Shown one piece after another: positions 5,357-31,093 of a DNA stretch of 64,000 nucleotides. The position numbers and the translations under genes are program-made. The notes beneath the pieces were generated by a model. The model was not told the origin of the DNA. It searched no databases and saw only the letters and a list, made by a program, of their open reading frames with translations. Source of the stretch: Candidatus Woesearchaeota archaeon (GTDB lineage: Archaea > Nanobdellota > Nanobdellia > Woesearchaeales > GW2011-AR4); assembly GCA_016184145.1 (NCBI GenBank), contig JACPDF010000030.1:76-64075 (forward strand), given 5' to 3'. Numbering within the stretch: the first letter of the stretch is position 1; every line of letters starts with the position of its first letter.

Positions 5357-6712
5357 ATGGTACTGGAAAAGCTGGGAGATTCGTTAAAGAGCACTTTGCA
5401 AAAAATAGCGAGAGCTGTATTTGTTGATGACAAGCTGATAAATGAACTAGTCAAGGATATACAAAGAGCCTTATTGCAGGCAGATGTAAATGTGCAATTA
5501 GTTTTTGATTTAACCAATAACATCAAGGAAAGGATAAAAAAAGAGGAGACTCCTCCCGGGCTTACGAAAAAAGAGCATTTGATCAATATTGTTTACGAAA
5601 CTCTTGTTGATTTTCTTGGCAAAGAGCAGTACAAGATTGACATCAAGGAAAAGCCTTTCAAGATAATGCTTGTTGGCTTGTTTGGAAGCGGCAAGACTAC
5701 TTCTGCCGGCAAGCTGGCAAAATATTTTGCAAAAAGAGGCAATAAAGTCGCTTTATTGGGCTTGGATATACACAGGCCGGCTGCAATGGAGCAGATCGAG
5801 CAGATCGCCAAGCAGGCAAATGTTCCAGTATTTATGGACAAAAAAGAGAAAAATCCAATAAAAATCTATAATAATTATAAAAATGAATTAAGCAAATTTG
5901 ACATTGTTATAATTGATACTGCCGGAAGGGATGCTTTATCTAAAGAATTGATTGAGGAAATTGAGAATCTAAATGATGAAATAAGGCCCAATGAGAATTT
6001 TTTAGTTATTTCCGCTGATATTGGCCAGGCAGCTCAAAGACAGGCAGAGCAGTTTCACAAAAGCTGTAGCATAACTGGAGTTATTGTTTCTAAGATGGAC
6101 GGGACAGCAAGAGGAGGAGGCGCATTAACAGCGTGCTCTGTTGCTCAGGCTCCTATTGTCTTTATCGGTGTTGGGGAGAAAATAGATGACCTTGAGCACT
6201 TTAACCCGAAAGGCTTTGTGGGAAGGATTTTGGGAATGGGGGATTTAGAGGCTTTATTGGAGAAAGCAAAAGAAGCCATAAAAGTTGAGGATGCCGAAGA
6301 TTTGGGAAAGAAATTCCTGAAAGGAGAATTTAATTTGCTGGATTTGTATGAGCAGATGGCAGCAATGAAAAGCATGGGCTCCCTGAAGAAATTAGTGGAA
6401 ATGATTCCAGGCTTTTCATCTTTGCATTTGCCGAAGGAAATGCTTGATGTCCAGGAAGGCAAGCTTGAAAAGTGGAAAATTGCTATGCAATCCATGACCA
6501 AAGAGGAGCTTGAAGATCCTGATGTTATGTCCAATGAAAGACTGGAAAGGATAAGCAAAGGCTCCGGAGTTCAAATAAGCGCAATAAGGGAATTAATCAA
6601 ACAATACAGGCAGAGCAAGAAGATGGTCAAATTATTTAAGGGCAGCAAAGGAGACATGGGCAAGATTATGAAGAAATTTGGAGGACAGCTGCCAGGGAAC
6701 TTTAAGATGTAG
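5357..6712 (+). CDS. srp54: signal recognition particle protein SRP54
   Basis: GTPase motifs GLFGSGKTT, DTAGR and SKMDG. The C-terminal M domain is Met-rich. Confidence 0.95.
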   Translation: MVLEKLGDSLKSTLQKIARAVFVDDKLINELVKDIQRALLQADVNVQLVFDLTNNIKERIKKEETPPGLTKKEHLINIVYETLVDFLGKEQYKIDIKEKPFKIMLVGLFGSGKTTSAGKLAKYFAKRGNKVALLGLDIHRPAAMEQIEQIAKQANVPVFMDKKEKNPIKIYNNYKNELSKFDIVIIDTAGRDALSKELIEEIENLNDEIRPNENFLVISADIGQAAQRQAEQFHKSCSITGVIVSKMDGTARGGGALTACSVAQAPIVFIGVGEKIDDLEHFNPKGFVGRILGMGDLEALLEKAKEAIKVEDAEDLGKKFLKGEFNLLDLYEQMAAMKSMGSLKKLVEMIPGFSSLHLPKEMLDVQEGKLEKWKIAMQSMTKEELEDPDVMSNERLERISKGSGVQISAIRELIKQYRQSKKMVKLFKGSKGDMGKIMKKFGGQLPGNFKM

Positions 6713-8212: not shown

Positions 8213-9904
8213 TTACTTATGAGTATACCAAAATATTAGCTTATTCTTCCCTTTTTTATCCAGCCTGCAAAATCCAAATCTTGCAAATTGCATGACATCA
8301 TTTTCCTTTAATTTACTTGCTAAAGGCTCCGCAATGCCTTTAACGAGCTTTTTATCGGGCATCAAAACCTCGGCCTTTGCCAAATCTTTTTGCTTTGGGA
8401 GCCAGTGCATTATAAGCCCTGGATTTTTCTTAAAGCTTGAATGCTCCAATGAGTCAAAAACAAGTTTAACTCCTTTTTTCCTGAAATTCAGGCAATCCAT
8501 CAGCCTGTTGATTTTATTTTCTTTGAATTTATTGTAATCCTCTTTTTCTATATAAAACGAATCTTTTGTCTTAAATTCCCTAAAGCCCCTTTCTTGGTGC
8601 TCAGGATGCAGCTTTAATTTGACAGTCTGCTCCGGGGCATTTTCTATCTTAATCTCCTTGGCGTCATGGATGAAGAAATACCTGTTTGACTGCGCATCAA
8701 GGATTCTTTTGTTCTGCACAATGAGGTCGTCCCATGCCAGCGTTGATTCTGTTTTTGTTATTCCTGTCGATAAAACAAAGTTCCTTATTGCTTCCGGCAC
8801 AAAGCCTCTCCTGCGCAGAGCAACAATTGTTGTTAATGAGGGGTCGTCCCATCCAATCAATTTTTTTTTCTTTATCAGATCCCTGATAACCCTTCCTGAG
8901 CTTTCAACGCCTTCAAGATTAAATCTTGCAAATTCATATATTTTTGTATTCGGAAAGCCCAAAGTCGTCTGGATGAAATTCTGCAGCTCATTCCTAAGCT
9001 CAAATTCCTTTGTCCTCAGCCTGTGTGTGACTCCCTGCAGTCCGTCTAAGACAGCATTTTCAAAATCATAGGTGGGCCATACGCGGTATTTGCTGCCAGT
9101 CCTGGGATGAGCATGCTTAATGATTCTTAGCAAAGCTGGATCTCTCATTGTCGTGTTTTCATGCTGCATGTAGCCTTTAAGCCTTAGCACCATGCTCCCT
9201 TCCGCCGCCTTAAACAGCTCTTCATACCTCCTTAGATGCTCATCTTCCAGCAAATACCTGCATGTGCATTCCTTGCCCTCCAGCCTGTCTTTCCTTATTT
9301 TTTCCTGGGGGCAGGTGCACACATATGCAAAGCCGTTTTTTACCATCTTCCCTGCAAGATCATAGAAATCCTGCATGTAGTCAGAAGCGTAAACAATCTC
9401 ATCTGCTTTTATGCCGAGCCATTTGTAATTGTCAAGCTGTATCTTGTAGAATTCTTTCTCTGCCAATCTTGGGTTTGTGTCCTCAAACCTTAAGATAAAT
9501 TTTCCATTGTATTTTTTAGCCAATTCGTAGTTTAAAAAAAGGGCTTTTGCATGGCCTATATGGGGATATTTGCTTGGCTCGGGAGGAAATGCGGTAACAA
9601 CTTTTTCATTCTCTTTTATATCAAATATGGAAAAGATATCCTTCTTTTCTTGCGCAGTTTCTTTTAGCTCACCGGAAAATTTTTCAAGCTCTTCCTTTTG
9701 CCTTTCCAGGTTTAGGGAATTGACCTCAGCAACTGTTTTTTTTATTTCCTGGCTTAATTTTTTCGTATCTTTTTTCAGCTCGGGATTTTCCGCCAGGACT
9801 TTCCCTATCACTGCCCCGATATTTGCTTTTCCCTTGTATTTGACCGCATTCTGCAATGCATACTTGAATATGATTTCCCTCATAAGCAAATATGAATGGA
9901 GCAA
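8213..9904 (-). CDS. gltX: glutamyl-tRNA synthetase (archaeal type)
   Basis: Class I signature PPEPSKYPHIGHAKALFLNYELAKKYNGKFILRFEDTNP. Length is typical for archaeal GluRS. Confidence 0.9.
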   Translation of the reverse strand: MLHSYLLMREIIFKYALQNAVKYKGKANIGAVIGKVLAENPELKKDTKKLSQEIKKTVAEVNSLNLERQKEELEKFSGELKETAQEKKDIFSIFDIKENEKVVTAFPPEPSKYPHIGHAKALFLNYELAKKYNGKFILRFEDTNPRLAEKEFYKIQLDNYKWLGIKADEIVYASDYMQDFYDLAGKMVKNGFAYVCTCPQEKIRKDRLEGKECTCRYLLEDEHLRRYEELFKAAEGSMVLRLKGYMQHENTTMRDPALLRIIKHAHPRTGSKYRVWPTYDFENAVLDGLQGVTHRLRTKEFELRNELQNFIQTTLGFPNTKIYEFARFNLEGVESSGRVIRDLIKKKKLIGWDDPSLTTIVALRRRGFVPEAIRNFVLSTGITKTESTLAWDDLIVQNKRILDAQSNRYFFIHDAKEIKIENAPEQTVKLKLHPEHQERGFREFKTKDSFYIEKEDYNKFKENKINRLMDCLNFRKKGVKLVFDSLEHSSFKKNPGLIMHWLPKQKDLAKAEVLMPDKKLVKGIAEPLASKLKENDVMQFARFGFCRLDKKGKNKLIFWYTHK

Positions 9905-9957
9905 TTATTTAAATATATACCCCTAAATTTAAATATTATCGCTATTCTCCCTTTTAT

Positions 9958-12648
9958 ATGAATGGGGGCAATATAGTAAAAAACAATATTCTCGGCTTTA
10001 TTATTCTTATTGTGGCAGCATTGTTCATTGCTGCGGGATTATATGCCGATTGGCTGTGGTTTGACTCATTAAGCTATCTTTCTGTCTTCAAGACAGTCCT
10101 TTTTTCGAAGATAATCATGGGCATTACAGCGTTTTTGGCGTTTTTTTCTTTCCTGTGGCTGAATTTTATCATATTAAAAAGAAGGATAAAAGTAAGCAAT
10201 CAGAGAATATATTTTTCAGTTATGGCTGCCGTTTCGGTGATTGCGGGCATTGTATCAAGCTCATACTGGTTTACTGCCCTCAGGTTCCTTGACTTTACAG
10301 GCTTTGGCTTTGTTGATCCTGTTTTCAGGAATGACATTGGCTTCTATATATTTGTCCTGCCTTTCTATAACTTTGTTCTAATGCTCTTGTTTTTCATGCT
10401 GATAGCGGCTATAATAATGGCAGCTGTCTCGTATGCATTTTCATCAAAGCCAAAAAAGATGGGCAGGGAGGAAGTGCCTGGCCAGAATATGCCCTTTGGC
10501 TTCGAGCCGGGATTCCCGAAAATAAAGATGGAGTTTCCGAAGAAAGGAAAAGCGCATCTTGCTTACTTATCAGGAATATTGCTGCTTGTAGCTGCAGCAT
10601 TCTTTTACCTGAAAAGATACTCTGTTTTAGCCTCTGCAAGGGGAGCTGTTTACGGGGCAGGATACACAGATATTCACATTATAATTCCATTGTATTTTAT
10701 CCTTGCAATAATCTCGTTGGCCACAGCGCTTATTGCTTTTTCTTACAGCTATATGCAAAACGCAAAGCTTGTCATTATTGGCATGGTTGTTTTGCTGGTT
10801 GCATTGCTCGGAGGAAATTTTGTTGCGGGAATAGTCCAGTTGCTGTATGTCGAGCCGAATGAATTTAACCTTGAGGAGCCTTATATCAAGCAGAACATAA
10901 AGCATACATTGTTTGCTTACGGCCTTACTGAGGTCAATGCAAGGGACTTTCCGGTTGCATACAACCTCACGCTTGATGATATAAGAAATAATCCTACTAC
11001 AATAAATAGCGTAAGGCTGTGGGACTGGAGGCCTTTGCTGACGACAAGCAAGCAGATACAGCTCTTTAGGACGTATTATGATTTTGTTGATGTTGATGTC
11101 GACCGCTACATAATCGATGGAGAGCTCAGGCAGCTTATGCTGTCTCCCCGCGAGCTAGACCAGAAGCAGCTGGACAGGAAAGCCCAGACATGGGTAAACC
11201 AGAAATTTGTCTATACTCATGGCTATGGCATCGTCGCTTCGCCTGTAAATGTTGTGACGCAGGAGGGGCTTCCGGAGCTTTTTGTGAAGGACATACCGCC
11301 AAAGACTGCTTATGAGGAGCTTGAGGTTTCACAGCCAAGAATTTATTTTGGGGAAAAGACAGACGGCTTTGTTGTGGTTAATACAAAGGCAAAAGAGTTT
11401 GACTATCCATTAGGCAATGAGAATGTTTTTGCAACCTATGAAGGCAGGGATGGCGTGCAGCTGTCAAATATGCTGAGAAAAACCGTTTTTTCCATCAAGC
11501 TTGCCTCTTTGAACCTGCTTGTTTCAAGCGCTGTTACTGACGAGAGCAAGGTTTTGCTTAGGAGGAATATTATTGACAGAATTAAAACTATAGCGCCTTT
11601 TTTGGAATATGACACTGATCCTTATATCGTGATTAATGACGGCAGGCTTTTTTGGATTATTGACGCTTACACCACAACAAATAAGTTTCCTTACAGCGAA
11701 TCTGTTTTTGGGCTTAACTATGTGAGGAATGCAGTCAAGGTTGTTGTGGACGTATATAACGGTGATGTTAATTTTTATATTATTGATAAGGAAGACCCTC
11801 TTATAAAAAATTATGCCAAAATCTTCCCTAGCTTGTTTAAGGATTTCAAGGAAATGCCTTTAGGACTAAAGGAGCATATAAGGTATCCTGAGGACTTGTT
11901 TAAGGTGCAAACAAGGATTTACGGAACTTACCACATGAAGGATCCGCAGGTTTTCTATAACAAAGAGGATGTGTGGAGGACTCCAATGGAGGTATTTGAA
12001 AGCAACCAGATAGAATTAAGCCCTTATTATATAATAATGAAGCTTCCCGATGCGGATAAAGAAGGGTTTTTCCTGATAATACCCCTGATACCCAGAGGCA
12101 AGGAAAACATGATTGCATGGTTTACCGCCAATTCAGACCCTGAAAACTACGGCAAATTAGAGGTTTTTGAGCTGAGCAAGCAGGAGCTTACTTTTGGTCC
12201 CATGCAAATTGAAGCAAGGATAAACCAGGATACTGAGATATCCCAGCTGTTTACGCTGTGGAACCAGCAGGGCTCAGAGGTAATAAGGGGCAACTTGATT
12301 GTAATACCTATAGAAAAAAGCTTCCTTTACATTGAGCCCGTATACCTTAAAGCCTCTGCAACCGGGGCATTGCCGCAATTCAAAAGGGTTATTGTAGCCT
12401 ATGACGACAAGGTTACAATGCAGGAAACTTTGGAAGACGCATTGAATGTGGTATTCAGCGGAAAAGCAATGCAAAAACAAAGTGAAAAAATCAGGCAGGA
12501 AACAGGCAAAGTTCTTGTAACCCTTGAGGAAAAATTTGCCAAAGCCTCCCAGCTTTATGAAGAAGCCCAGGCAGCCTTGCAGCAGGGAGATTTTGCAGCT
12601 TATGCAAACAAGATAGAGGAGCTTGGCAAGGTGCTTGGGAAGGATTAA
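9958..12648 (+). CDS. UPF0182 (COG1615) family large membrane protein
   Basis: 896 aa with about 7 N-terminal TM helices followed by a large soluble region. It contains ...YTHGYGIVASP.., ..DAYTTTNKFPYS.. and ..IEPVYLKA.., which I remember as typical of UPF0182. Confidence 0.8.
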   Translation: MNGGNIVKNNILGFIILIVAALFIAAGLYADWLWFDSLSYLSVFKTVLFSKIIMGITAFLAFFSFLWLNFIILKRRIKVSNQRIYFSVMAAVSVIAGIVSSSYWFTALRFLDFTGFGFVDPVFRNDIGFYIFVLPFYNFVLMLLFFMLIAAIIMAAVSYAFSSKPKKMGREEVPGQNMPFGFEPGFPKIKMEFPKKGKAHLAYLSGILLLVAAAFFYLKRYSVLASARGAVYGAGYTDIHIIIPLYFILAIISLATALIAFSYSYMQNAKLVIIGMVVLLVALLGGNFVAGIVQLLYVEPNEFNLEEPYIKQNIKHTLFAYGLTEVNARDFPVAYNLTLDDIRNNPTTINSVRLWDWRPLLTTSKQIQLFRTYYDFVDVDVDRYIIDGELRQLMLSPRELDQKQLDRKAQTWVNQKFVYTHGYGIVASPVNVVTQEGLPELFVKDIPPKTAYEELEVSQPRIYFGEKTDGFVVVNTKAKEFDYPLGNENVFATYEGRDGVQLSNMLRKTVFSIKLASLNLLVSSAVTDESKVLLRRNIIDRIKTIAPFLEYDTDPYIVINDGRLFWIIDAYTTTNKFPYSESVFGLNYVRNAVKVVVDVYNGDVNFYIIDKEDPLIKNYAKIFPSLFKDFKEMPLGLKEHIRYPEDLFKVQTRIYGTYHMKDPQVFYNKEDVWRTPMEVFESNQIELSPYYIIMKLPDADKEGFFLIIPLIPRGKENMIAWFTANSDPENYGKLEVFELSKQELTFGPMQIEARINQDTEISQLFTLWNQQGSEVIRGNLIVIPIEKSFLYIEPVYLKASATGALPQFKRVIVAYDDKVTMQETLEDALNVVFSGKAMQKQSEKIRQETGKVLVTLEEKFAKASQLYEEAQAALQQGDFAAYANKIEELGKVLGKD

Positions 12649-15532: not shown

Positions 15533-15569
15533 TATACAGAAGTAATATGGCTTTATTTATAAATATTGA

Positions 15570-15655
15570 CGCCAAGGGCAGGATTTGAACCTACGTGTCC
15601 TTGCGGACACACGCTTTCGAGGCGTGCGCGTTAGACCGGACTCCGCCACCTTGGC
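15570..15655 (-). tRNA. tRNA-Ser(CGA), no intron
   Basis: Minus-strand read GCCAAGG..CCTTGGC-G. Anticodon arm CACGC-CTCGAAA-GCGTG. Long variable arm GTCC-GCAA-GGAC. T arm GTAGG-TTCAAAT-CCTGC. Confidence 0.9.
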
Positions 15656-15689
15656 ATAATAATATGCAAAGAATTCTTATTTTAAAAAC

Positions 15690-24176: not shown

Positions 24177-24590
24177 TCATCTGACCAGCAGCTTACTGAC
24201 AAGAGCCCTCAAGGCTTTTATCCTTAAAATCATTTCTTTCGCTTCCTGCTCAGAAACTTCCTTGCCATAATAATTTACGCTATTCCTTGCCTTTCTTATC
24301 TCATCAAATTCCTCTGCCTGATGGCTTTCACTTAGGACTTCTCTCAGAAATGCAGTATAGCACTCATGATTGTAGACTTTAAACCCGTTTTTAAGCGCCA
24401 AAGCCTCCAAAAGCTCCCTAAGCGAGTCATAGGCGAGGGACAGCTTTGAGGCTGCGGTAATATTATCCATGCTAAGCTTGCTTTCAGACTCCATTTTGTT
24501 TTTGCTGGACTTTACAAGAGAATTTATCATGTCCTCATCAGGCTTTGCTTCCTTGGCAATTCTTTTATTGCAGCACTCTTCCCAGTCCAT
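24177..24590 (-). CDS. HEPN domain protein (toxin partner of an MNT nucleotidyltransferase)
   Basis: ..EFDEIRKARNSVNYYG.. (R-N-x-x-x-Y HEPN motif). Lies 1 nt downstream of the NTase gene. Confidence 0.75.
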   Translation of the reverse strand: MDWEECCNKRIAKEAKPDEDMINSLVKSSKNKMESESKLSMDNITAASKLSLAYDSLRELLEALALKNGFKVYNHECYTAFLREVLSESHQAEEFDEIRKARNSVNYYGKEVSEQEAKEMILRIKALRALVSKLLVR

Positions 24591-24591
24591 G

Positions 24592-25101
24592 CTAGGTTCT
24601 CAGCCTCCCGCTTAAAACATAGCCGTTGGCTATATTGCTTGCCAATTCCCTGCTCTTGGCTTTTGCCAATCCCTCAAACCAGTAAATCTGTATTTTTCTC
24701 TTCAGCTTATTTTCAAAACTTTTAATGTCGAGCTTTCTTTCGCTTGCGAAGATCGCCAAATCAATATCAGAATCATTTTTTGCCTCCGCCTTGGAAAGCG
24801 AGCCAAAAAGCACTATTGCGGGGCTCATTAAATGCTCCTCAATATAGGCTGTCAATTCTTTTAATTTTTGGCGCCAATAGATTCTCGACAAGTCTATGAA
24901 AACTTTGCTGTCCTTGTTTGCATAGAACAGGAGGTTATTCCTATACGCGGTTTTGAGCAGCAATCCTTCTTTCACATAGTAATTCAGCATTTTGGATGAG
25001 GTTGGGGGTGTTATATGGGTCAATTTCGCATACTCCCTCACATTGATTCTTCTGTAGCAATCCTCAAAAAACGGGCTTAAATCATTAATTATTTTTAACA
25101 T
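24592..25101 (-). CDS. minimal nucleotidyltransferase (MNT) with N-terminal wHTH
   Basis: LFGSLSKAEAKNDSDIDLAIF matches GS-x(9-10)-DxD. Confidence 0.8.
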   Translation of the reverse strand: MLKIINDLSPFFEDCYRRINVREYAKLTHITPPTSSKMLNYYVKEGLLLKTAYRNNLLFYANKDSKVFIDLSRIYWRQKLKELTAYIEEHLMSPAIVLFGSLSKAEAKNDSDIDLAIFASERKLDIKSFENKLKRKIQIYWFEGLAKAKSRELASNIANGYVLSGRLRT

Positions 25102-25175: not shown

Positions 25176-25727
25176 CTACTTCTTCCACTTGATGCTGCAT
25201 CCCATAGAAGGCTGCTGCTCTAATGCAATCTTGCCGTTTTTTAGGAATTGCCCAATGGCTTCGTGCATCTCATGCTTATTTGCTTCTTCCTGGCCGTGGG
25301 TGTCATCCAATCGGCTATGAAATATTAGGTTAAAATTGCCGTCAAACAGGAATGGATCCGGAGTGCAGCTTGCTCCATAGTCTTTTGCGGTTTTTTGTGT
25401 TTCATCCCTTAGATAGATGAAGTTAATGCCCCTTTCTTTGGCAGTTTTCTTCATGCCTTCAAAATTGTCTTCCGGGACAAAATTCTCATCATTTGGGTTA
25501 ATGCCAACAACAACCACCCCTTTGTTTTTATAGTCGGATTGTATTCTTTTAAGCTCATTGATTTTTGGCTTTACATAGGGGCAATGGTTGCACATGAAAA
25601 CAACAAGCAATGCTTTTGCATTTTTAAAATTTGATAAAGAATATGTTTTATTATCTACACCGGGAAGCTTGAAATCCGGAGCATTCATTCCTTTTTTTAA
25701 TTTGCTTATTGATTCTACCAATGCCAT
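25176..25727 (-). CDS. thioredoxin-fold redoxin (AhpC/TSA-like thiol-disulfide oxidoreductase)
   Basis: ..LLVVFMCNHCPYVK.. has a CxxC in a redoxin context. Confidence 0.75.
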   Translation of the reverse strand: MALVESISKLKKGMNAPDFKLPGVDNKTYSLSNFKNAKALLVVFMCNHCPYVKPKINELKRIQSDYKNKGVVVVGINPNDENFVPEDNFEGMKKTAKERGINFIYLRDETQKTAKDYGASCTPDPFLFDGNFNLIFHSRLDDTHGQEEANKHEMHEAIGQFLKNGKIALEQQPSMGCSIKWKK

Positions 25728-25828
25728 TTTATCACCTTAATTCCGGGAAGCGCTTATTATATTTAAAAATAATGTTTTTTGCTGCAAAACGAAAGCAATT
25801 TATATTCAATTTAATTCCGTTAATAATC

Positions 25829-26143
25829 ATGATTATTGCAAACACAGATTATGTCGCTGGCAAAAAGATAAAGGAAACCCTCGGCATAGTGAGGGGCAGC
25901 ACAGTAAGGGCAAAGCACATAGGCAAGGATGTAATGGCTATGCTAAAGCAGATTGTAGGGGGAGAGATTACAGGATATACTCAAATGATAAATGAAGCCA
26001 GAGATGAAGCAGTAAAAAGAATGGTGGAAGAGGCAAAAAAGCTGAAAGCCGATGCAATTGTCAATGTAAGGTTTGCAACATCCGATATAATGCAGGGAGC
26101 TGCTGAAGTCATGGCTTACGGGACTGCTGTTAGGTTAAAATAA
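25829..26143 (+). CDS. YbjQ/UPF0145 family protein
   Basis: ..GIVRGSTVRAKHIGKDVMAMLKQIVGGEI.GYTQMINEARDEA...M.EEAKKLKADAIVNVRF.. is typical YbjQ. Start taken at the internal Met MIIANTD (25829). Confidence 0.8.
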   Translation: MIIANTDYVAGKKIKETLGIVRGSTVRAKHIGKDVMAMLKQIVGGEITGYTQMINEARDEAVKRMVEEAKKLKADAIVNVRFATSDIMQGAAEVMAYGTAVRLK

Positions 26144-26156
26144 TCATAGAGGAAAA

Positions 26157-26282
26157 TTAGTCTACTAAAGAATCAATAAGCTCTTTCTGCTGCCGGGACC
26201 AGACCTTGTCAGGATGGTTTCTGATGTATTTAGCCCAGTACCTGATCATCCATTCCCTGTCTTCCTTGTTCTTATTTTCCAT
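26157..26282 (-). CDS. hypothetical 41-aa protein
   Basis: MENKNKEDREWMIRYWAKYIRNHPDKVWSRQQKELIDSLVD. Its start overlaps the 3' end of the upstream NTase-fold gene by 11 nt. Confidence 0.3.
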   Translation of the reverse strand: MENKNKEDREWMIRYWAKYIRNHPDKVWSRQQKELIDSLVD

Positions 26283-26844
26283 ATTCCTTAATTAGGCTTT
26301 CATAGTATTTAATTTTTTCTTCAGAGACATGCCCTTTAAATACCTCTTTCAGGTGCAGAGCATCTTCTTTGTCCTTTTCGCTTCCAAGCACTATTAGCTT
26401 ATAAGGTATCTGAATCTCAATCGGGGATATGAACAAGGTTACACCTCTTATTTTTACCTTAGCTTTTTCCTTTAAGGTCTCTTTGTCTATCAAAGAATCA
26501 GCAAACTTAAGCTCGATATTTGGAATGACTTTTTTCTTTCTTGCAAACCTTATCGAGTGTTTTGTCTGCAACAGTTCAAAAAGTTCACTAATTTCTTCTT
26601 CATTAATGCACCAGAACTCTTTTGACAAATCCTTATAGAGCTTTTTGAAATTGCCTTCATCAATCTTTGGGATTAATATATCTATGTCTTCTGAAATGCG
26701 GCTCCTGCCAAAAAGTATGGCAACATACCCAGAAACCAGAACATAATCTGTATGCCTTTTAAGGACATTTACAAAGTCAATGACTAATTTATCGAGATTG
26801 TTTAATATTTTATCCAAGATAACAACTTTGCCTTTTATTTTCAT
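26272..26844 (-). CDS. nucleotidyltransferase-fold protein (AbiEii/DUF6036-like)
   Basis: SGYVAILFGRSRISEDIDILI matches G-x-x-A...R.S.DxD. I place the start at Met30 (26844) because codons 1-29 of the tracked ORF read through a tRNA-derived repeat. Confidence 0.55.
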   Translation of the reverse strand: MKIKGKVVILDKILNNLDKLVIDFVNVLKRHTDYVLVSGYVAILFGRSRISEDIDILIPKIDEGNFKKLYKDLSKEFWCINEEEISELFELLQTKHSIRFARKKKVIPNIELKFADSLIDKETLKEKAKVKIRGVTLFISPIEIQIPYKLIVLGSEKDKEDALHLKEVFKGHVSEEKIKYYESLIKEYGK

Positions 26845-26913
26845 GCAATAGGGGAGTTCTTTTTGCTTTATATATTCTTCCCCTAAATGTCCAGTGGTAA
26901 TTAATGAGCCTGC

Positions 26914-26934
26914 AGGGATTCGAAAATACATTTT
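26914..26934 (-). repeat. distal 21-bp copy of the tRNA-Arg 3' exon (candidate att site)
   Basis: ATGAGCCTGCAGGGATTCGAA is identical to 31162-31182, in the same orientation. Confidence 0.8.
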
Positions 26935-26984: not shown

Positions 26985-26994
26985 CTTTATAAAT
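26985..26994 (+). promoter_or_regulatory. TATA-box-like element (CTTTATAAAT) 22-31 nt upstream of the MutS-like gene ATG
   Basis: Same motif and spacing as srp54. Confidence 0.45.
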
Positions 26995-27015: not shown

Positions 27016-28944
27016 ATGTTAGATGATAAGGTAAGAGCTATCGATTATGAAACTATTGCCATCCTCTTTAGAAACCAGCCATTACGAACCGGGAAATATT
27101 CTGAATGGTGTTTGAGTCCTCGGTATGAGAAAGAAAAAAGACCTGAAAGGATGTTGGTTGATTCTTTTTATGGGCCACTCCAAGAAAGATTATCTAATCT
27201 AATGCCCCCGCTAGAAAAAACAAAAAGGGAGATTAAAGTCAAAAGGGAATATCCATTTAAAGGGGAAAAAGTGATTCATATACCCATAAATAACTTTTTA
27301 ATGGCTTCGTATGGTATGATGGGCGGTAAAAGTCTCGAATATTTCCCTACAATTAGAAAAGACAAGGAAAGGGAAGTTATTATGCTTTATGAAGATTCTT
27401 GGGTGAAGCCTCTACCAAACATTAATGCAATTCAGAGAAGACAGCAAGAATTGCGGGAATTGGTAGAAGATAAACCATATGCAGATGGGATTGATGCTCT
27501 TGCTCAATCCTTGAATAACATACTCCTGCCTCACCTCCATCTTTCCTCACTTACAAAATTGCTGGTTTCAAATACCTTAGGCGCATCAAGGTCTATGCCT
27601 ATCCATAGAAAGGACCAAGATGCCTTTTACCAGGATTACCTACGTTTTTGCAGGGAGTTTGTCCGTTGGTATGATGAAGCGAAAGACATTTCTTCCTCTG
27701 TTCAGCCAACATCCCAAAATATGAAGGGAACTGTCAAAGGGATTTGTTCTATTTTAGCTGAAAGCCCTCTCGTTGCTTCCTATAAGACAGCTCGCAATCT
27801 TGTGGATGATGCTCCTGCTTCTTTTGGCAAATTACGTGAGAGGGTTATGGCGTGCACTTCAGGAAAACCATTAGTTACACAAGAGAAACTGGAGAAATTG
27901 ACTGAAATGGTTCGCAATGAAGCGAGGAAAGCGCGAGACTTTTATTTTGAACACCCACCTGAGTGGTTAAGAATATTTCAAGAAGACAAATCAAAAAAAG
28001 GAAGTGTGATGGCAACAGAAAAGGAATACATGGATTTCTATCTTTACAAAGAACAAATGAGGAGATTAGGTTATTTTTCCATAAAGTCAGGCTTAACCGT
28101 CCCATGGCCATTTGCCCAATCTGACAATGCAATCGTGACAATAAATCGCCTTGCAAATCACTTTACAGCAGCCCTCTCTCATGCTGAATATATTAGAAAT
28201 AAGGAAGGGTGGACAGTTCCCAATACTCTTCCAAAAAGATTAGGGGTTATAGATATTAAAAACGGGTGGTATCCTCTAACTCCGCTATACAAAGGAGAGA
28301 AGTTTGCCTATAATGACACCTACCTTAACGGCCAGCAAAGAGTGGAAATACTTGATGGCACCAATAGGGGCGGCAAAACAATTGATATGAGAAAAACCGC
28401 TTTTGCAGTTGTTTGCGCGCTTGCAGGAAATTATGTCCCGGCTGGAGAAGGAACAAGAATATCTTATTTTGATAATGTCTATATTCGTCTCAGAAGTGGT
28501 GGATTGAACGACCAAAGTGCTCTTGAGCAGGAGCTTAATTCTACACATAAACTCATTGAAAAAATAAAATCTGGCTCTGCAGCCCTGGTCTGCATTGATG
28601 AGCCTTGGTCTTCTACGAATGCAAAGGAAGGGGAAGGGCTGACATATGGGTTAGTGAGGCGAATATCGGAAATCAGGCAAATAGCGGAAATTCCGAGCGC
28701 GAGGGGAGTTTTCGCAATCCATTACCCTCAAATGAGGCAGCATACTTTAGGAATTGAAGGGGTTGCACATTCCCATTTCGAATATAGTGAGGAAAATGGA
28801 GAAGTCATAACAAATCACCAAAAGCTTCCTGGGCCAAATCCACAGCCAGGGTACGCTTTCGTGATAGCGCGCGCAGAAGGACTCCATCCACAGGTGTTAG
28901 CCCATGCAATGAGGCTTTACCAGGAGAAGCACCATGAAAAGTAG
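27016..28944 (+). CDS. MutS-core/domain V-like ABC ATPase, paralogue A (no mismatch-binding or Smr domain seen)
   Basis: C-terminus YNDTYLNGQQRVEILDGTNRGGKTIDMRK (Walker A-like), ..NYVPAGEG.., ..DQSALEQELNS.., ..LVCIDEPWSSTNAKEG (Walker B), ..FAIHYPQM. The order and spacing match MutS domain V. Confidence 0.7.
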   Translation: MLDDKVRAIDYETIAILFRNQPLRTGKYSEWCLSPRYEKEKRPERMLVDSFYGPLQERLSNLMPPLEKTKREIKVKREYPFKGEKVIHIPINNFLMASYGMMGGKSLEYFPTIRKDKEREVIMLYEDSWVKPLPNINAIQRRQQELRELVEDKPYADGIDALAQSLNNILLPHLHLSSLTKLLVSNTLGASRSMPIHRKDQDAFYQDYLRFCREFVRWYDEAKDISSSVQPTSQNMKGTVKGICSILAESPLVASYKTARNLVDDAPASFGKLRERVMACTSGKPLVTQEKLEKLTEMVRNEARKARDFYFEHPPEWLRIFQEDKSKKGSVMATEKEYMDFYLYKEQMRRLGYFSIKSGLTVPWPFAQSDNAIVTINRLANHFTAALSHAEYIRNKEGWTVPNTLPKRLGVIDIKNGWYPLTPLYKGEKFAYNDTYLNGQQRVEILDGTNRGGKTIDMRKTAFAVVCALAGNYVPAGEGTRISYFDNVYIRLRSGGLNDQSALEQELNSTHKLIEKIKSGSAALVCIDEPWSSTNAKEGEGLTYGLVRRISEIRQIAEIPSARGVFAIHYPQMRQHTLGIEGVAHSHFEYSEENGEVITNHQKLPGPNPQPGYAFVIARAEGLHPQVLAHAMRLYQEKHHEK

Positions 28945-30556
28945 TGTTCTTGATGAGGAAACAAGAAAAATTTTTACCTATGATGACGAATTAGAAAGAT
29001 GGGACCGTCTCTGGAGGAAGATTGATGGCCTCATTAATTTTGGGGTGCCAAATGTTCCGTCCTTGGATGATTTGCTCTTAAGCCCCAAAACTGACATAAA
29101 TGAAATAAATGGCCAATTGGATGCAGTGGAATATTTAATCAGGAATCCGGATTTCTTAAAGCAATTTAAAAGAATTGATGAAGATACTCATGCTGCTATT
29201 GGCGGGTTCTTTTTTTCTGAGTCTCCAAGACTGGTAAGAAAAGGATGGGAGAACTATCTGGCCAACTCACCAAAAGATAAGCAATTAGCCGAATTATTAA
29301 GATATTTGGAGCGAGAAACAAAAGACCATTGGGAGCAGGCAATTGAGGGAATAAAAAATGCAATAGGATTTTTCAATCTGGCGCAAAAGCTTCCAAGAAA
29401 ATTAGAAATTAAAAAACATACTCCAAAAAAAATTGAAAGCATATGTGCGGAATATGATAAGTTAATTTCATCCCCACAGGTTACTGAAGCATTAGATTAT
29501 GCTTCAAGAGCAGTTGGTCATTTTGAAACCATTCAACAAAAATACTCATCAGATAAACAAAAAGAAAAGTATGCGCATGTCATTGATTTGAGGCGAAAAA
29601 AAGTAGATAACCCTAATTTGAGATTGAAAGATTATGATAAACATATAGAAAAACTAAGGAGAAGCCAAGAACGTTCTAGGGATTATGAAATTAGACTTGT
29701 AAAGCGATTAATTTCTGAGCTTGGCGATTTGATTAAAACGGAAGATGCCAACAGAAACTTAGAAATCCTTACTGGGATGAAAAAACAGTGGAATTTAACC
29801 GAGCTGTTCACCTATATGGAATTAGCAGCAGTTGCCTACAGAAACAATTGGACTCGCCCTGAGATTGCTCCAAGGGAAGAAAATTGCCTCATCATAAGGA
29901 ATGGTGTGTTTTACCCCCGTCAGAGAAGAAGGCATGATTATACACCTAATGACACTTACTTGAATTTGTATCTGGCCAATACTCATCGTGTCGAAATTCT
30001 TGAGGGAGTTAATATGGGCGGTAAAACTATGGATATGAAAAAGGCCCTCTATATTGCTACATTGGCATTGTCTGGCAGCTTTGTCCCAGCAACATATGCA
30101 TGTGTTTCTGCCAGAGACAGGATTATCCTCAGAGGCAAGGGAGATGGCCAGGATCGCTCAGCCTTCGTACAGGATGTTGCAAGAGTAAACGAAATTGTGC
30201 CTCCTGCTGGGCAATATTGGCTGGCCGCATTAGACGAGCCATTTACTTCTACAGAAGCTGATGGAGGGATGTATCTTACGGCAGGTGTTGCAATAACTGT
30301 CGCTGGACAAGGAAATTCATTGTTGATTCTCTCCAGCCATTATCCCAGCTTAAAAGAATTATTAGATGGTGATTCTACAGTTAAATTCAATCATTTCCCT
30401 TTTACTATGGAAGGAAAAAAAGTGACGTTTCCGCATAAAAAACAAGAAGGAGGGTTAAAAGATTATGCGTATGCTATCGCAGTTGCCAGGTCTCGCGGGT
30501 TTGATGAAACAACCTTGCAATACGCAAGTGAGTATCTCCAAAATCAGAAAAAATGA
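28934..30556 (+). CDS. MutS-core/domain V-like ABC ATPase, paralogue B
   Basis: PNDTYLNLYLANTHRVEILEGVNMGGKTMDMKK, ..SFVPATYA.., ..DRSAFVQDVAR.., ..LAALDEPFTSTEADGG, ..LSSHYPSL. Its start overlaps the stop of paralogue A by 11 nt (ATGAAAAGTAG). Confidence 0.7.
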   Translation: MKSSVLDEETRKIFTYDDELERWDRLWRKIDGLINFGVPNVPSLDDLLLSPKTDINEINGQLDAVEYLIRNPDFLKQFKRIDEDTHAAIGGFFFSESPRLVRKGWENYLANSPKDKQLAELLRYLERETKDHWEQAIEGIKNAIGFFNLAQKLPRKLEIKKHTPKKIESICAEYDKLISSPQVTEALDYASRAVGHFETIQQKYSSDKQKEKYAHVIDLRRKKVDNPNLRLKDYDKHIEKLRRSQERSRDYEIRLVKRLISELGDLIKTEDANRNLEILTGMKKQWNLTELFTYMELAAVAYRNNWTRPEIAPREENCLIIRNGVFYPRQRRRHDYTPNDTYLNLYLANTHRVEILEGVNMGGKTMDMKKALYIATLALSGSFVPATYACVSARDRIILRGKGDGQDRSAFVQDVARVNEIVPPAGQYWLAALDEPFTSTEADGGMYLTAGVAITVAGQGNSLLILSSHYPSLKELLDGDSTVKFNHFPFTMEGKKVTFPHKKQEGGLKDYAYAIAVARSRGFDETTLQYASEYLQNQKK

Positions 30557-30754: not shown

Positions 30755-31093
30755 TTACGCTTGATTGTATAGCATATTATGGACTAGATACTCAACATTT
30801 CTTAAGACATCAATAGAAGTTGGGCGATAACCGTCAGGATTTTCAAAGCCTTCCTTTCCATAATTCCAACAAACAGAGAGAGGGACATCCGATTTAAATA
30901 CGAGGGCTTTGTGTTCTCCTCTAATGTCAATTATCCTACCAGCTGACCTTTCCCTTACCAGATACTCAATGAGTTTCTCTATTCCGGAAAATTCCTCATG
31001 GTGAAGCTCAAAGCTGCTGCCTGCAGGCCTCTGATGCATTACGCCCCATTCCTTCTTTGGTTTTGATGTCATGTATAGAATTATTGTTGGCAT
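30755..31093 (-). CDS. hypothetical protein (orphan; islet cargo)
   Basis: 112-aa ORF with no recognisable motif. It lies between the MutS-like pair and tRNA-Arg. Confidence 0.45.
   Translation of the reverse strand: MPTIILYMTSKPKKEWGVMHQRPAGSSFELHHEEFSGIEKLIEYLVRERSAGRIIDIRGEHKALVFKSDVPLSVCWNYGKEGFENPDGYRPTSIDVLRNVEYLVHNMLYNQA

Follow-up and report, generated by a model that had tools for sequence, protein, structure and literature searches.

Overlapping MutS-core ATPase paralogues of Woesearchaeota/Nanoarchaeota-type archaea as candidate subunits of a heterodimeric clamp

A 64,000-nt stretch of a contig assigned to a Candidatus Woesearchaeota archaeon (the window, whose coordinates are used throughout) contains two overlapping genes, here called A and B, that encode divergent paralogues sharing a MutS-type ATPase core. 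We propose that their products form an obligate heterodimeric MutS-core ATPase clamp that acts on nucleic acid without mismatch recognition, and we give this overall reading a probability of about 0.6. Judged from the sequences, the heterodimeric MutS-core complex as such is very likely; a DNA structure as its substrate is suggested more tentatively, by analogy with other MutS proteins. The two genes and their presumed expression signals are:

27016..28944, plus strand: gene A, 642 amino acids (aa), short-form DPANN MutS-core subunit A (open reading frame list, Pfam MutS_V)
28934..30556, plus strand: gene B, 540 aa, DPANN MutS-core subunit B (open reading frame list, Pfam MutS_V)
28934..28944, plus strand: 11-nt A/B overlap ATGAAAAGTAG; the ATG of B lies within the last codons of A, 11 nt ahead of the TAG of A
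28922..28926, plus strand: AGGAG, Shine-Dalgarno-like, inside the 3' end of A and 7 nt upstream of the ATG of B
26986..26993, plus strand: TTTATAAA box, putative archaeal TATA element, ~26 nt upstream of the ATG of A

The preliminary description of this locus had reported two open reading frames (ORFs) of 642 and 540 aa that overlap by 11 nt, and had interpreted them as a translationally coupled pair of divergent MutS-core paralogues; the coordinates and lengths are as reported and the interpretation is supported. The element CTTTATAAA is invariant in the alignment of the upstream regions of the window and of two related loci, L035 and L001 (L and P numbers denote related loci and related proteins, respectively). 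The A and B proteins of L001 are ~50-55% identical to the window pair, yet the TATA-like box is kept, and such a conserved box is found upstream of A only. Archaeal TATA elements are positioned at about -26. From this known promoter geometry we infer that the TTTATAAA box is the promoter and, because it lies ~26 nt before the ATG of A, that the A-B transcript is a single operon mRNA that is leaderless or near-leaderless. Purine-rich motifs (AAGGTGA, AGGTGG, GGGAG) precede the ATG of B among L001, L007, L006 and L035, and the AGGAG motif of the window would serve the coupled translation of A and B.

The ATPase domains and their catalytic motifs are located as follows:

28201..28941, plus strand: A aa 396-642, MutS domain V ABC-type ATPase plus C-terminal helix-turn-helix region
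28357-28380, plus strand: A aa 448-455, Walker A GTNRGGKT
A aa 501-503, plus strand: signature SAL
28597-28602, plus strand: A aa 528-529, Walker B DE
A aa 569-571, plus strand: HYP
29840..30553, plus strand: B aa 303-540, MutS domain V ATPase plus C-terminal helix-turn-helix region
30005-30028, plus strand: B aa 358-365, Walker A GVNMGGKT
30158-30166, plus strand: B aa 409-411, signature SAF
30233-30238, plus strand: B aa 434-435, Walker B DE
B aa 469-471, plus strand: HYP

Both proteins are members of the MutS superfamily. The Pfam MutS_V model matches A with 64.6 bits (E 1.5e-17, aa 445-636) and B with 70.3 bits (E 2.7e-19, aa 355-536), in both cases above the gathering score of 30.2, and the C-terminal ~250 aa of A and B are 31% identical to each other over 248 aa (BLASTP, E 2e-30). 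Both contain, in this order, NDTYLN, G(T/V)N(R/M)GGKT, VPA, SA(L/F)xQ(E/D), DEP(W/F)(S/T)ST and HYP, that is, the Walker A GxxxxGK[ST], signature S-x-F/L, Walker B DE and conserved histidine in the succession typical of the superfamily. BLASTP and Pfam agree here with the preliminary description, according to which the C-terminal regions align and carry the MutS domain V motifs in the right order. The similarity to MutS extends through the C-terminal helix-turn-helix (MutS_V positions 2-185 of 188), the region through which MutS1 dimerises.

Across 22 A and 23 B sequences the Walker A (GxNxGGKT), the Walker B DE and the histidine of HYP are kept, so both sites are predicted to be ATP-competent and should bind and hydrolyse ATP. 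The signature serine is kept in 22 of the 23 B sequences but in only 14 of the 22 A sequences, the remaining eight having glycine; in the window pair both signature serines are present. In ABC-type dimers this serine acts in trans on the site of the partner, and its frequent loss from A therefore predicts that the site composed of the B Walker A and the A signature is the weaker or regulatory one in many lineages. Asymmetric sites had been proposed earlier from the comparison of SALEQE in A with SAFVQD in B. This difference within one genome is no evidence of asymmetry because both motifs keep the serine, but a mild asymmetry is indicated at the level of the family by the serine counts.

Five close relatives of A (P0002-P0006) and six of B (P0026-P0031) were identified among 5.8 billion clusters by a word-indexed search, in which the next matches below them are already canonical MutS. 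In an exhaustive HMMER search of 1.84 billion representative proteins with a B profile, ~25 B-type clusters scored above 370 bits and ~25 A-type clusters 170-290 bits, with canonical MutS1 reaching at most 137 bits; the same search also brought up a small sister group X and two giant tandem fusions, both described below. The proteins that we read between the family and canonical MutS1 belong to two groups termed X and G or are canonical MutS or fragments. Two candidates were rejected: P0032, considered as a distant B relative, is a truncated canonical MutS adjoining MutL, and the 'MutS-like' accessory proteins of diversity-generating retroelements are only 112-283 aa long. Family-specific peptide patterns match 4 of 185,579 GTDB species genomes and 6 loci among 241 million metagenome records. 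The pair was found at about a dozen distinct loci, all of them metagenomic, with the source names "Candidatus Woesearchaeota archaeon" and "Nanoarchaeota archaeon"; the family is rare and, among named records, confined to tiny DPANN archaea.

In every contig with readable context the A-type gene has a B-type gene directly downstream in the same orientation (L001, L002, L003/L012, L006, L007/L009, L010, L011, L022, L025 and L035), which answers positively the question, raised in the preliminary description, of whether the pairing is also kept in other genomes. A and B share 11 nt in L001, L007/L009 and L035 and 4 nt (ATGA) in L003/L012 and L006, and the called genes are 1-8 nt apart in L002, L010 and L011. 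In reciprocal BLAST comparisons every A is nearest to an A and every B to a B. Single-chain A-B fusions with the same order are represented by P0145 (1369 aa, identical in three independent assemblies), P0148 (1494 aa), the truncated P0185 and the locus L027. Against the 82-84% identical relative L035, the ratio of nonsynonymous to synonymous substitution rates (dN/dS) is 0.26 for A and 0.21 for B, with an unsaturated dS of ~0.4; both genes are under purifying selection. From the constant A-then-B order, the fusions and the dN/dS values it follows that the pair is conserved and selected as a pair, and because repeated fusions are a classic genomic signature of subunits of one complex, A and B are most readily understood as such subunits. 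No third gene is common to the loci. The ~210-240-aa ORFs located upstream of A in several of them were tried as a conserved third gene and rejected, as BLASTP detects no mutual similarity.

One of the paired loci, L010 (CAYHAM010000002.1, 260 kb), is titled 'uncultured Methanosarcinales archaeon', an unverified label. It carries a typical pair of a long A form and B, and both the pair itself and the GC content of 0.36 over a 14-kb stretch resemble the DPANN loci, so that it represents either a mislabelled or mis-binned metagenome-assembled genome or a transfer outside DPANN.

The regions ahead of the ATPase domains comprise the following features:

27043..27072, plus strand: A aa 10-19 IDYETIAILF, MutS domain III entry motif
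27073..27387, plus strand: A aa 20-124, A-specific insertion, predicted beta-hairpin, conserved N92 and G100
27388..28200, plus strand: A aa 125-395, helical domain III-like core, starting with WVKPLxxxxxIxxRQxxLxELVED
28946..29839, plus strand: B aa 5-302, domain III-like helical core
B aa 5-14 VLDEETRKIF, entry motif, and B aa 50-68 SPKTDINEINGQLDAVEYL, plus strand
B ~aa 200-270, plus strand: charged helical insert, specific to the subclade of the window

Neither protein matches MutS_I, MutS_II, MutS_IV or Smr in Pfam, in agreement with the earlier statement that the mismatch-binding domain I and Smr are missing, and a nuclease domain is likewise absent. MutS_III is matched by B below threshold (E 1.2e-3), and PF05192 is recorded for the B orthologues P0028 and P0030. 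The N-terminal ~400 aa of A and B had been described as different from each other. This is true for BLASTP, which detects no similarity between these regions, but not for family profiles: in a profile-profile comparison (hhalign), A125-637 and B44-537 align as a single match with a probability of 100% (E 2e-58), A125-395 being aligned with B44-302, and the entry motifs are shared. The profiles indicate that A and B are homologous along the core, not just in the ATPase, and that A has an insertion of ~100 aa. The entry motif [IV]DxxT[ILV]xx[LV][FL], the canonical counterpart of which is 'LDxxTxxNLEL' in the MutS1 alignment consensus, is present in all 16 long A forms directly after their N-terminal extension. 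A second domain III hallmark, PLxxxxxIxxR(Q/L)xx(L/V)xxLV, is found at aa 132-150 of A and aa 51-68 of B. As the spacing between the two hallmarks is ~110 aa in A versus ~35 in B and in MutS1, the segment between them in A includes a family-specific insertion. The invariant columns of the B alignment are L6, D7, T10, P51, I58 and L62.

AlphaFold2 (AF2) models are consistent with a helical lever preceding the ATPase. In A, aa 125-395 are all-helical at a predicted local distance difference test (pLDDT) score of 60-90; B is helical, with a pLDDT of 70-90 at aa 140-310. Ahead of the ATPase, the prediction for B is entirely helical; that for A is mostly helical, the only strands being those of the hairpin at aa 72-90 within the insertion (aa 72-79 and 83-90, low confidence). 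No domain IV-like segment is seen in the model of either subunit. The mean pLDDT of the two subunits is 49 and 57.5, with family alignments of 5 and 7 sequences. The fold comparison recommended in the preliminary description gave a uniform answer, although both models match at a template modelling (TM) score of only ~0.2, which is weak support: all top 35 Foldseek matches of the A model are MutS, MSH or MutS2, and the B model likewise returned MutS, MSH and MutS2 only. The PDB sequence matches for the pair are also limited to these three groups.

In the mechanism that we propose, each subunit would consist of a domain III-like helical lever, a domain V ABC ATPase and a C-terminal dimerisation region, and the A-B complex would operate as an ATP-switched clamp or sensor that changes conformation on nucleic acid. 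It would recognise nucleic acid by its shape, with branched or recombination-intermediate DNA as the most probable form, and, having no nuclease of its own, would pass a signal to other factors or recruit them instead of cutting DNA itself. Recombination intermediates are favoured because of the analogy with MSH4-MSH5, MutS2 and archaeal MutS5, which lack domain I. MSH4-MSH5 is an obligate heterodimer without domain I that recognises DNA structure and not mismatches. It shares with the other eukaryotic MSH complexes, and with the proposed A-B complex, the combination of paralogous MutS subunits in a heterodimer with non-equivalent ATP sites; however, domains II-IV are retained in the MSH proteins, which are part of the MutS1 lineage, whereas A and B are without a detectable domain IV and outside the MutS1 clade. 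MutS2 is similar in being a core-only MutS (domains III and V) without domain I and is among the top sequence and fold matches, but it is a homodimer with C-terminal KOW and Smr domains, and A and B have neither. The best functional analogy for DNA binding is offered by archaeal MutS5, a domain-V-only homologue without mismatch specificity, which differs in being a single gene instead of an A/B pair. The P. furiosus 'MutS2'-like protein of this family is an ATPase that binds DNA non-specifically (PMC2190696).

Several observations weigh against this mechanism. The heterodimer is deduced from genomic logic, as the AF2 models of the subunits are poor. When compared with the MutS1 alignment, only the last ~250 aa of A and B align (hhalign), so the lever and clamp architecture is drawn from motifs, secondary structure and low-TM folds, and a recognisable DNA-binding clamp (domain IV) was found in neither A nor B. 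The neighbourhood of the pair holds no pointer to DNA metabolism. The system appears to be dispensable in one lineage, in which an insertion disrupts B (L026, described below). MutS-type ATPases also act on ribosomes, and the MutS2-ribosome entries 7qv3 and 8qpp are among the PDB matches of the pair. Finally, NCBIfam names the MutS-related KamC as an enzyme reactivase ATPase.

Among the alternative explanations, the one that survives best is that the heterodimer acts on ribosomes or RNA, in translation quality control of the kind performed by MutS2 on collided ribosomes. The two ribosome-bound MutS2 structures mentioned above support it, as does the absence of domain I from MutS2 itself. Translation-related genes are also found near the pair, namely an S4_2 RNA-binding gene and ProRS in L001, a YchF/Obg-like GTPase in L002 and AlaRS in L003, and distant giant tandem fusions adjoin a ThiI/NFACT-R_2 gene. 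However, these neighbours vary by locus, and small genomes that contain many genes of this kind would show such associations by chance. A and B have no KOW or Smr domain and no match to PF01713 or PF20297, their scores with the mutS2 model TIGR01069 are 55-62 bits against a cut-off of 400, and in the ATPase tree described below they are no closer to MutS2 (distance 2.2-2.6) than to MutS1 (~2.0). We consider a ribosomal or RNA substrate improbable, and a clamp on DNA is preferred for the same complex.

The gene organisation of the pair is the same in kind as that of MutS4A/MutS4B, and membership in this subfamily has to be weighed as a further alternative. MutS4A and MutS4B are adjacent MutS paralogues, the first stop codon overlapping the second start, that were found in few bacteria plus Thermoplasma and Ferroplasma (Lin, Nei and Ma 2007, PMC2190696). 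The list was later extended to ~60 bacteria and four Euryarchaeota (Thermoplasma, Ferroplasma, Picrophilus and Methanocella), none of them DPANN, and M. smegmatis carrying the MutS4 operon was reported to show more homologous recombination (Kim et al. 2017, PMC5742357). Both systems comprise adjacent, overlapping domain V paralogues in an operon, without domains I and II and without a nuclease, have a patchy distribution and are presumed heterodimers. The overlaps in the DPANN pairs are of 4 or 11 nt, and some of these pairs use the ATGA overlap of authentic MutS4. In contrast, both MutS4 subunits are ~510 aa long, compared to 642 and 540 aa for A and B of the window, and MutS4 is widespread in bacteria and on plasmids, whereas the DPANN pair is chromosomal and its named records are of the Woesearchaeota/Nanoarchaeota type.

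The comparison with MutS4 was based on the M. branderi pair WP_083134047.1 and WP_083134046.1 (Table S3, PMC5742357) and on plasmid pairs of Klebsiella and Alicyclobacillus, these MutS4 loci being recovered by relaxed tblastn of the B ATPase domain against plasmids. A and B are 18-32% identical to these references over ~100-235 aa (pairwise E 1e-3 to 3e-11), and in tblastn the B ATPase domain matches the M. branderi locus with E = 2, versus ~1e-13 to 1e-17 for canonical MutS1. The motifs also differ. The MutS4 reference pairs have N-E-S/I-F at Walker B and G-K-L at the signature position, where A and B have D-E and S-A-L/F; the signature S-[AT]-[FL] is shared by A and B with MutS1 and MutS2. 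A neighbour-joining tree of the ATPase domain (80 sequences, 229 columns, Kimura distances, 500 bootstraps), which is a distance tree with three MutS4 pairs and without MutS3 and verified MutS5 references, recovers DPANN-A (87%), DPANN-B (95%), A+B (86%), MutS4A+4B (98%) and MutS1 (99%), whereas none of the 500 bootstraps contains A+4A, B+4B or A+B+MutS4. No other group is as far from A and B as MutS4 (mean distance 2.75-2.99 versus ~2.0 for MutS1). Because A+B and 4A+4B form clades of their own, the tree points to separate duplications and to parallel evolution of the overlapping pair, the DPANN pair being an independent duplication; its membership in MutS4 is very unlikely. The phylogenetic placement called for in the preliminary description thereby puts the pair outside the MutS1 and MutS4 clades, within the sampling given above. 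A plasmid-encoded Halorussus protein with a helix-hairpin-helix-like N-terminus (WP_276302228.1, 590 aa), whose assignment to MutS5 is unverified, joins A, B and group X in only 22% of the bootstraps.

The preliminary description had also presented the system as a candidate undescribed one. None of the curated collections (Pfam beyond MutS_V, NCBIfam, PADLOC) has a family that describes the pair, and our literature search found no paper on it, but the design of overlapping MutS paralogues has been known since 2007 (PMC2190696). What is new is the DPANN branch outside the tested families, and what is known is the design of a MutS-family pair, realised in MutS4 and conceptually in MSH dimers. 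As to canonical mismatch repair proteins, A and B have no match to PF01624, PF05188 or PF05190 of MutS1, and the NCBIfam MutS models score 68-100 bits with the pair against cut-offs of 480-642.

The MutS4 pairs on plasmids provide observations of their own. They are located at L013:4041-7096, L014:4032-7087 and L016:3053-6099, the plasmids concerned being an 864-kb M. branderi plasmid, a conjugative Klebsiella IncFIB/IncFII plasmid and one of Alicyclobacillus, and ~20 further enterobacterial plasmid records have the same kind of match, seen as matches only. The N-E Walker B and the missing signature serine raise the question of whether MutS4 hydrolyses ATP. The neighbours of MutS4 are repeatedly ion-transport genes (cation:proton antiporter, CrcB, Mn efflux, DUF190, cation transporter).

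The preliminary description had favoured a defence, DNA-sensing or element-maintenance module on a tRNA-flanked islet, and it is the genomic context that makes such an anti-phage or mobile-element role highly improbable. Some defence systems do contain ABC-type and MutS-like ATPases; a nucleotidyltransferase gene with a putative HEPN-like partner, of which only the nucleotidyltransferase is supported by Pfam, lies 2 kb upstream of the pair (24177-25101); and the family is patchy and rare, with one B gene hit by an insertion sequence (IS) element. However, the window contains a single tRNA, a tRNA-Ser at 15568-15656 on the minus strand, 11 kb upstream of A, and no tRNA was found in it downstream of the pair (ARAGORN, Rfam); the GC content of the window is flat (0.34-0.43). 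There are no integrase, transposase or restriction genes near the pair, and an effector domain (nuclease, protease, TIR or membrane) is found neither in the two proteins nor beside them. PADLOC gives no match for A and only DpdC at E 0.014 for B. No relatives were detected in 2.9 million viral contigs or among 72,556 plasmids, where tblastn of full-length B gave canonical MutS only.

Instead of a defence island, the pair is surrounded by housekeeping genes that are partly syntenic between loci. The window encodes SRP54, GluRS, EF-1alpha, ArgRS, both chains of carbamoyl-phosphate synthase and RibD, as well as phosphoglucomutase, TIM, redoxin, YbjQ, ThiF/MoeB-rhodanese and Alba. A MutL-type domain is absent from the ~20 of its ORFs that were scanned with Pfam and is not recorded in the related loci. 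The neighbours differ by locus and include TIM, ROK kinase, Alba, redoxin, an ABC transporter, ProRS and PRPP synthetase, and further a proteasome subunit, FBPase, DeoC, SOD, AlaRS, a YchF-like GTPase, a HAD hydrolase and an amino-acid kinase. TIM, redoxin and Alba lie no more than 10 kb from the pair in both the window and L001, as would be expected of a region that was inherited vertically and rearranged locally, and the context fits a pair of ordinary core-chromosome genes that are inherited vertically within the DPANN lineage.

The least probable alternative is that the pair remodels or reactivates a metabolic enzyme, as the ATPase KamC does for lysine 5,6-aminomutase. With B, the ATPase_KamC model gives E 7.9e-20 over aa 142-474 and covers more of the helical region than the MutS1 models do, but NF052383 scores only 71 bits with B and 50 bits with A against a cut-off of 300, the match appears generic to the MutS core because MutS4 and the haloarchaeal protein match KamC equally well, and no B12-dependent or radical enzyme is conserved beside the pair.

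The history of the proposed heterodimer can be followed to some extent through its relatives. Most A proteins are long forms with an N-terminal extension of ~150-290 aa in which Pfam and NCBIfam detect no domain; the A protein of the window is without it. The sister group X is a small group of uncharacterised metagenomic proteins (P0189, P0193 and P0208), and A+B+X is recovered in 70% of the bootstraps. Its members have a Walker B region of the DE-x-[FWIL]-T-S-T type, like the pair, and tentatively share the N-terminal extension of the long A forms (hhalign probability 60%, E 9e-5), but in the one contig examined (L019) the gene is unpaired. A plausible history would start with the duplication of an X-like single gene, after which A kept the N-terminal extension and B lost it; in the subclade of the window, A would then have lost the extension too, and B would have gained the charged helical insert at aa ~200-270.

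Giant tandem fusions, P0172 (2803 aa, L020:4487-12898) and P0187 (1739 aa), are distant relatives that resemble the pair in having two MutS-core modules in one chain and differ from it in keeping the canonical DExGR motif and in the addition of PfkB kinase and histidine-kinase-type ATPase domains. Their modules read GPNMDGKT...DELGRHTN and GSNMDGKS...DEPGRSTN. P0172 has a PfkB sugar-kinase domain and a histidine-kinase-type ATPase domain, and its gene adjoins the ThiI/NFACT-R_2 gene and a gene with two PLD domains, giving the appearance of a signalling-like MutS-pair fusion.

Mismatch repair, the control of meiotic crossovers, anti-recombination and ribosome rescue have all recruited the MutS clamp, and duplication followed by heterodimerisation is the step that made the eukaryotic MSH complexes asymmetric. 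The DPANN pair would be a further and independent instance of heterodimerisation after duplication. A two-gene system that is kept under purifying selection in very small genomes is likely to have an important role. As a minimal MutS, without domains I and IV and, in the subclade of the window, without the N-terminal extension, it is attractive for probing the lever-plus-ATPase core alone. Its practical value is limited until the substrate is found, and the overlapping-paralogue design is already known from MutS4. A bolder scenario, which we regard as unlikely but worth stating, is that a gene duplication within the Woesearchaeota/Nanoarchaeota-type DPANN archaea gave rise to a heterodimeric MutS machine reduced to lever and ATPase, the third to have arisen independently after MSH and MutS4A/B. 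It would be their main clamp for recombination, genome surveillance or translation surveillance in place of canonical mismatch repair, with the insertion of A and the charged helical arms as a new substrate-binding module.

In L026 (4656-8690), a Nanoarchaeota-type contig, A is intact (873 aa) and B is split. Its N-terminal 275 codons stop directly behind the conserved PREDNCLI motif; the gene continues in the same frame 2.6 kb further on with its C-terminal 189 codons, and the Walker A segment is missing. The insert contains an IS200/IS605-type Y1 transposase-like ORF (5619-6194, motif HLHLFV) and three other ORFs, and this B is probably a pseudogene.

Some minor features of the neighbourhood remain to be listed:

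24177-25101, minus strand: gene for a 169-aa Polbeta/NTP_transf_2 nucleotidyltransferase and a 137-aa ORF without Pfam match
25709-26143: ORF starting at TTG and overlapping the end of the redoxin gene
26272-26931, minus strand: 219-aa ORF directly flanking the pair
30755-31093, minus strand: 112-aa ORF directly flanking the pair

The 137-aa ORF is read as a HEPN-type partner solely from the gene arrangement; together with the nucleotidyltransferase it is likely to form a toxin-antitoxin-like module, located between the TIM and redoxin genes and absent from the syntenic region of L001. The real start of the ORF at 25709-26143 is probably an internal ATG, the YbjQ_1 domain (E 5e-37) beginning at ~25838. 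The 219-aa and 112-aa ORFs have no Pfam match and no counterpart beside the pair in other loci; the 112-aa ORF stays beside B in all population samples of the organism. Immediately downstream of the MutS pair in L003 (9375-11099), a LAGLIDADG_3 ORF (9657-10484) separates a 40-aa Sod_Fe_C fragment from a complete Fe-SOD gene, an arrangement that may represent a homing-endonuclease insertion with a duplicated 3' end of SOD.

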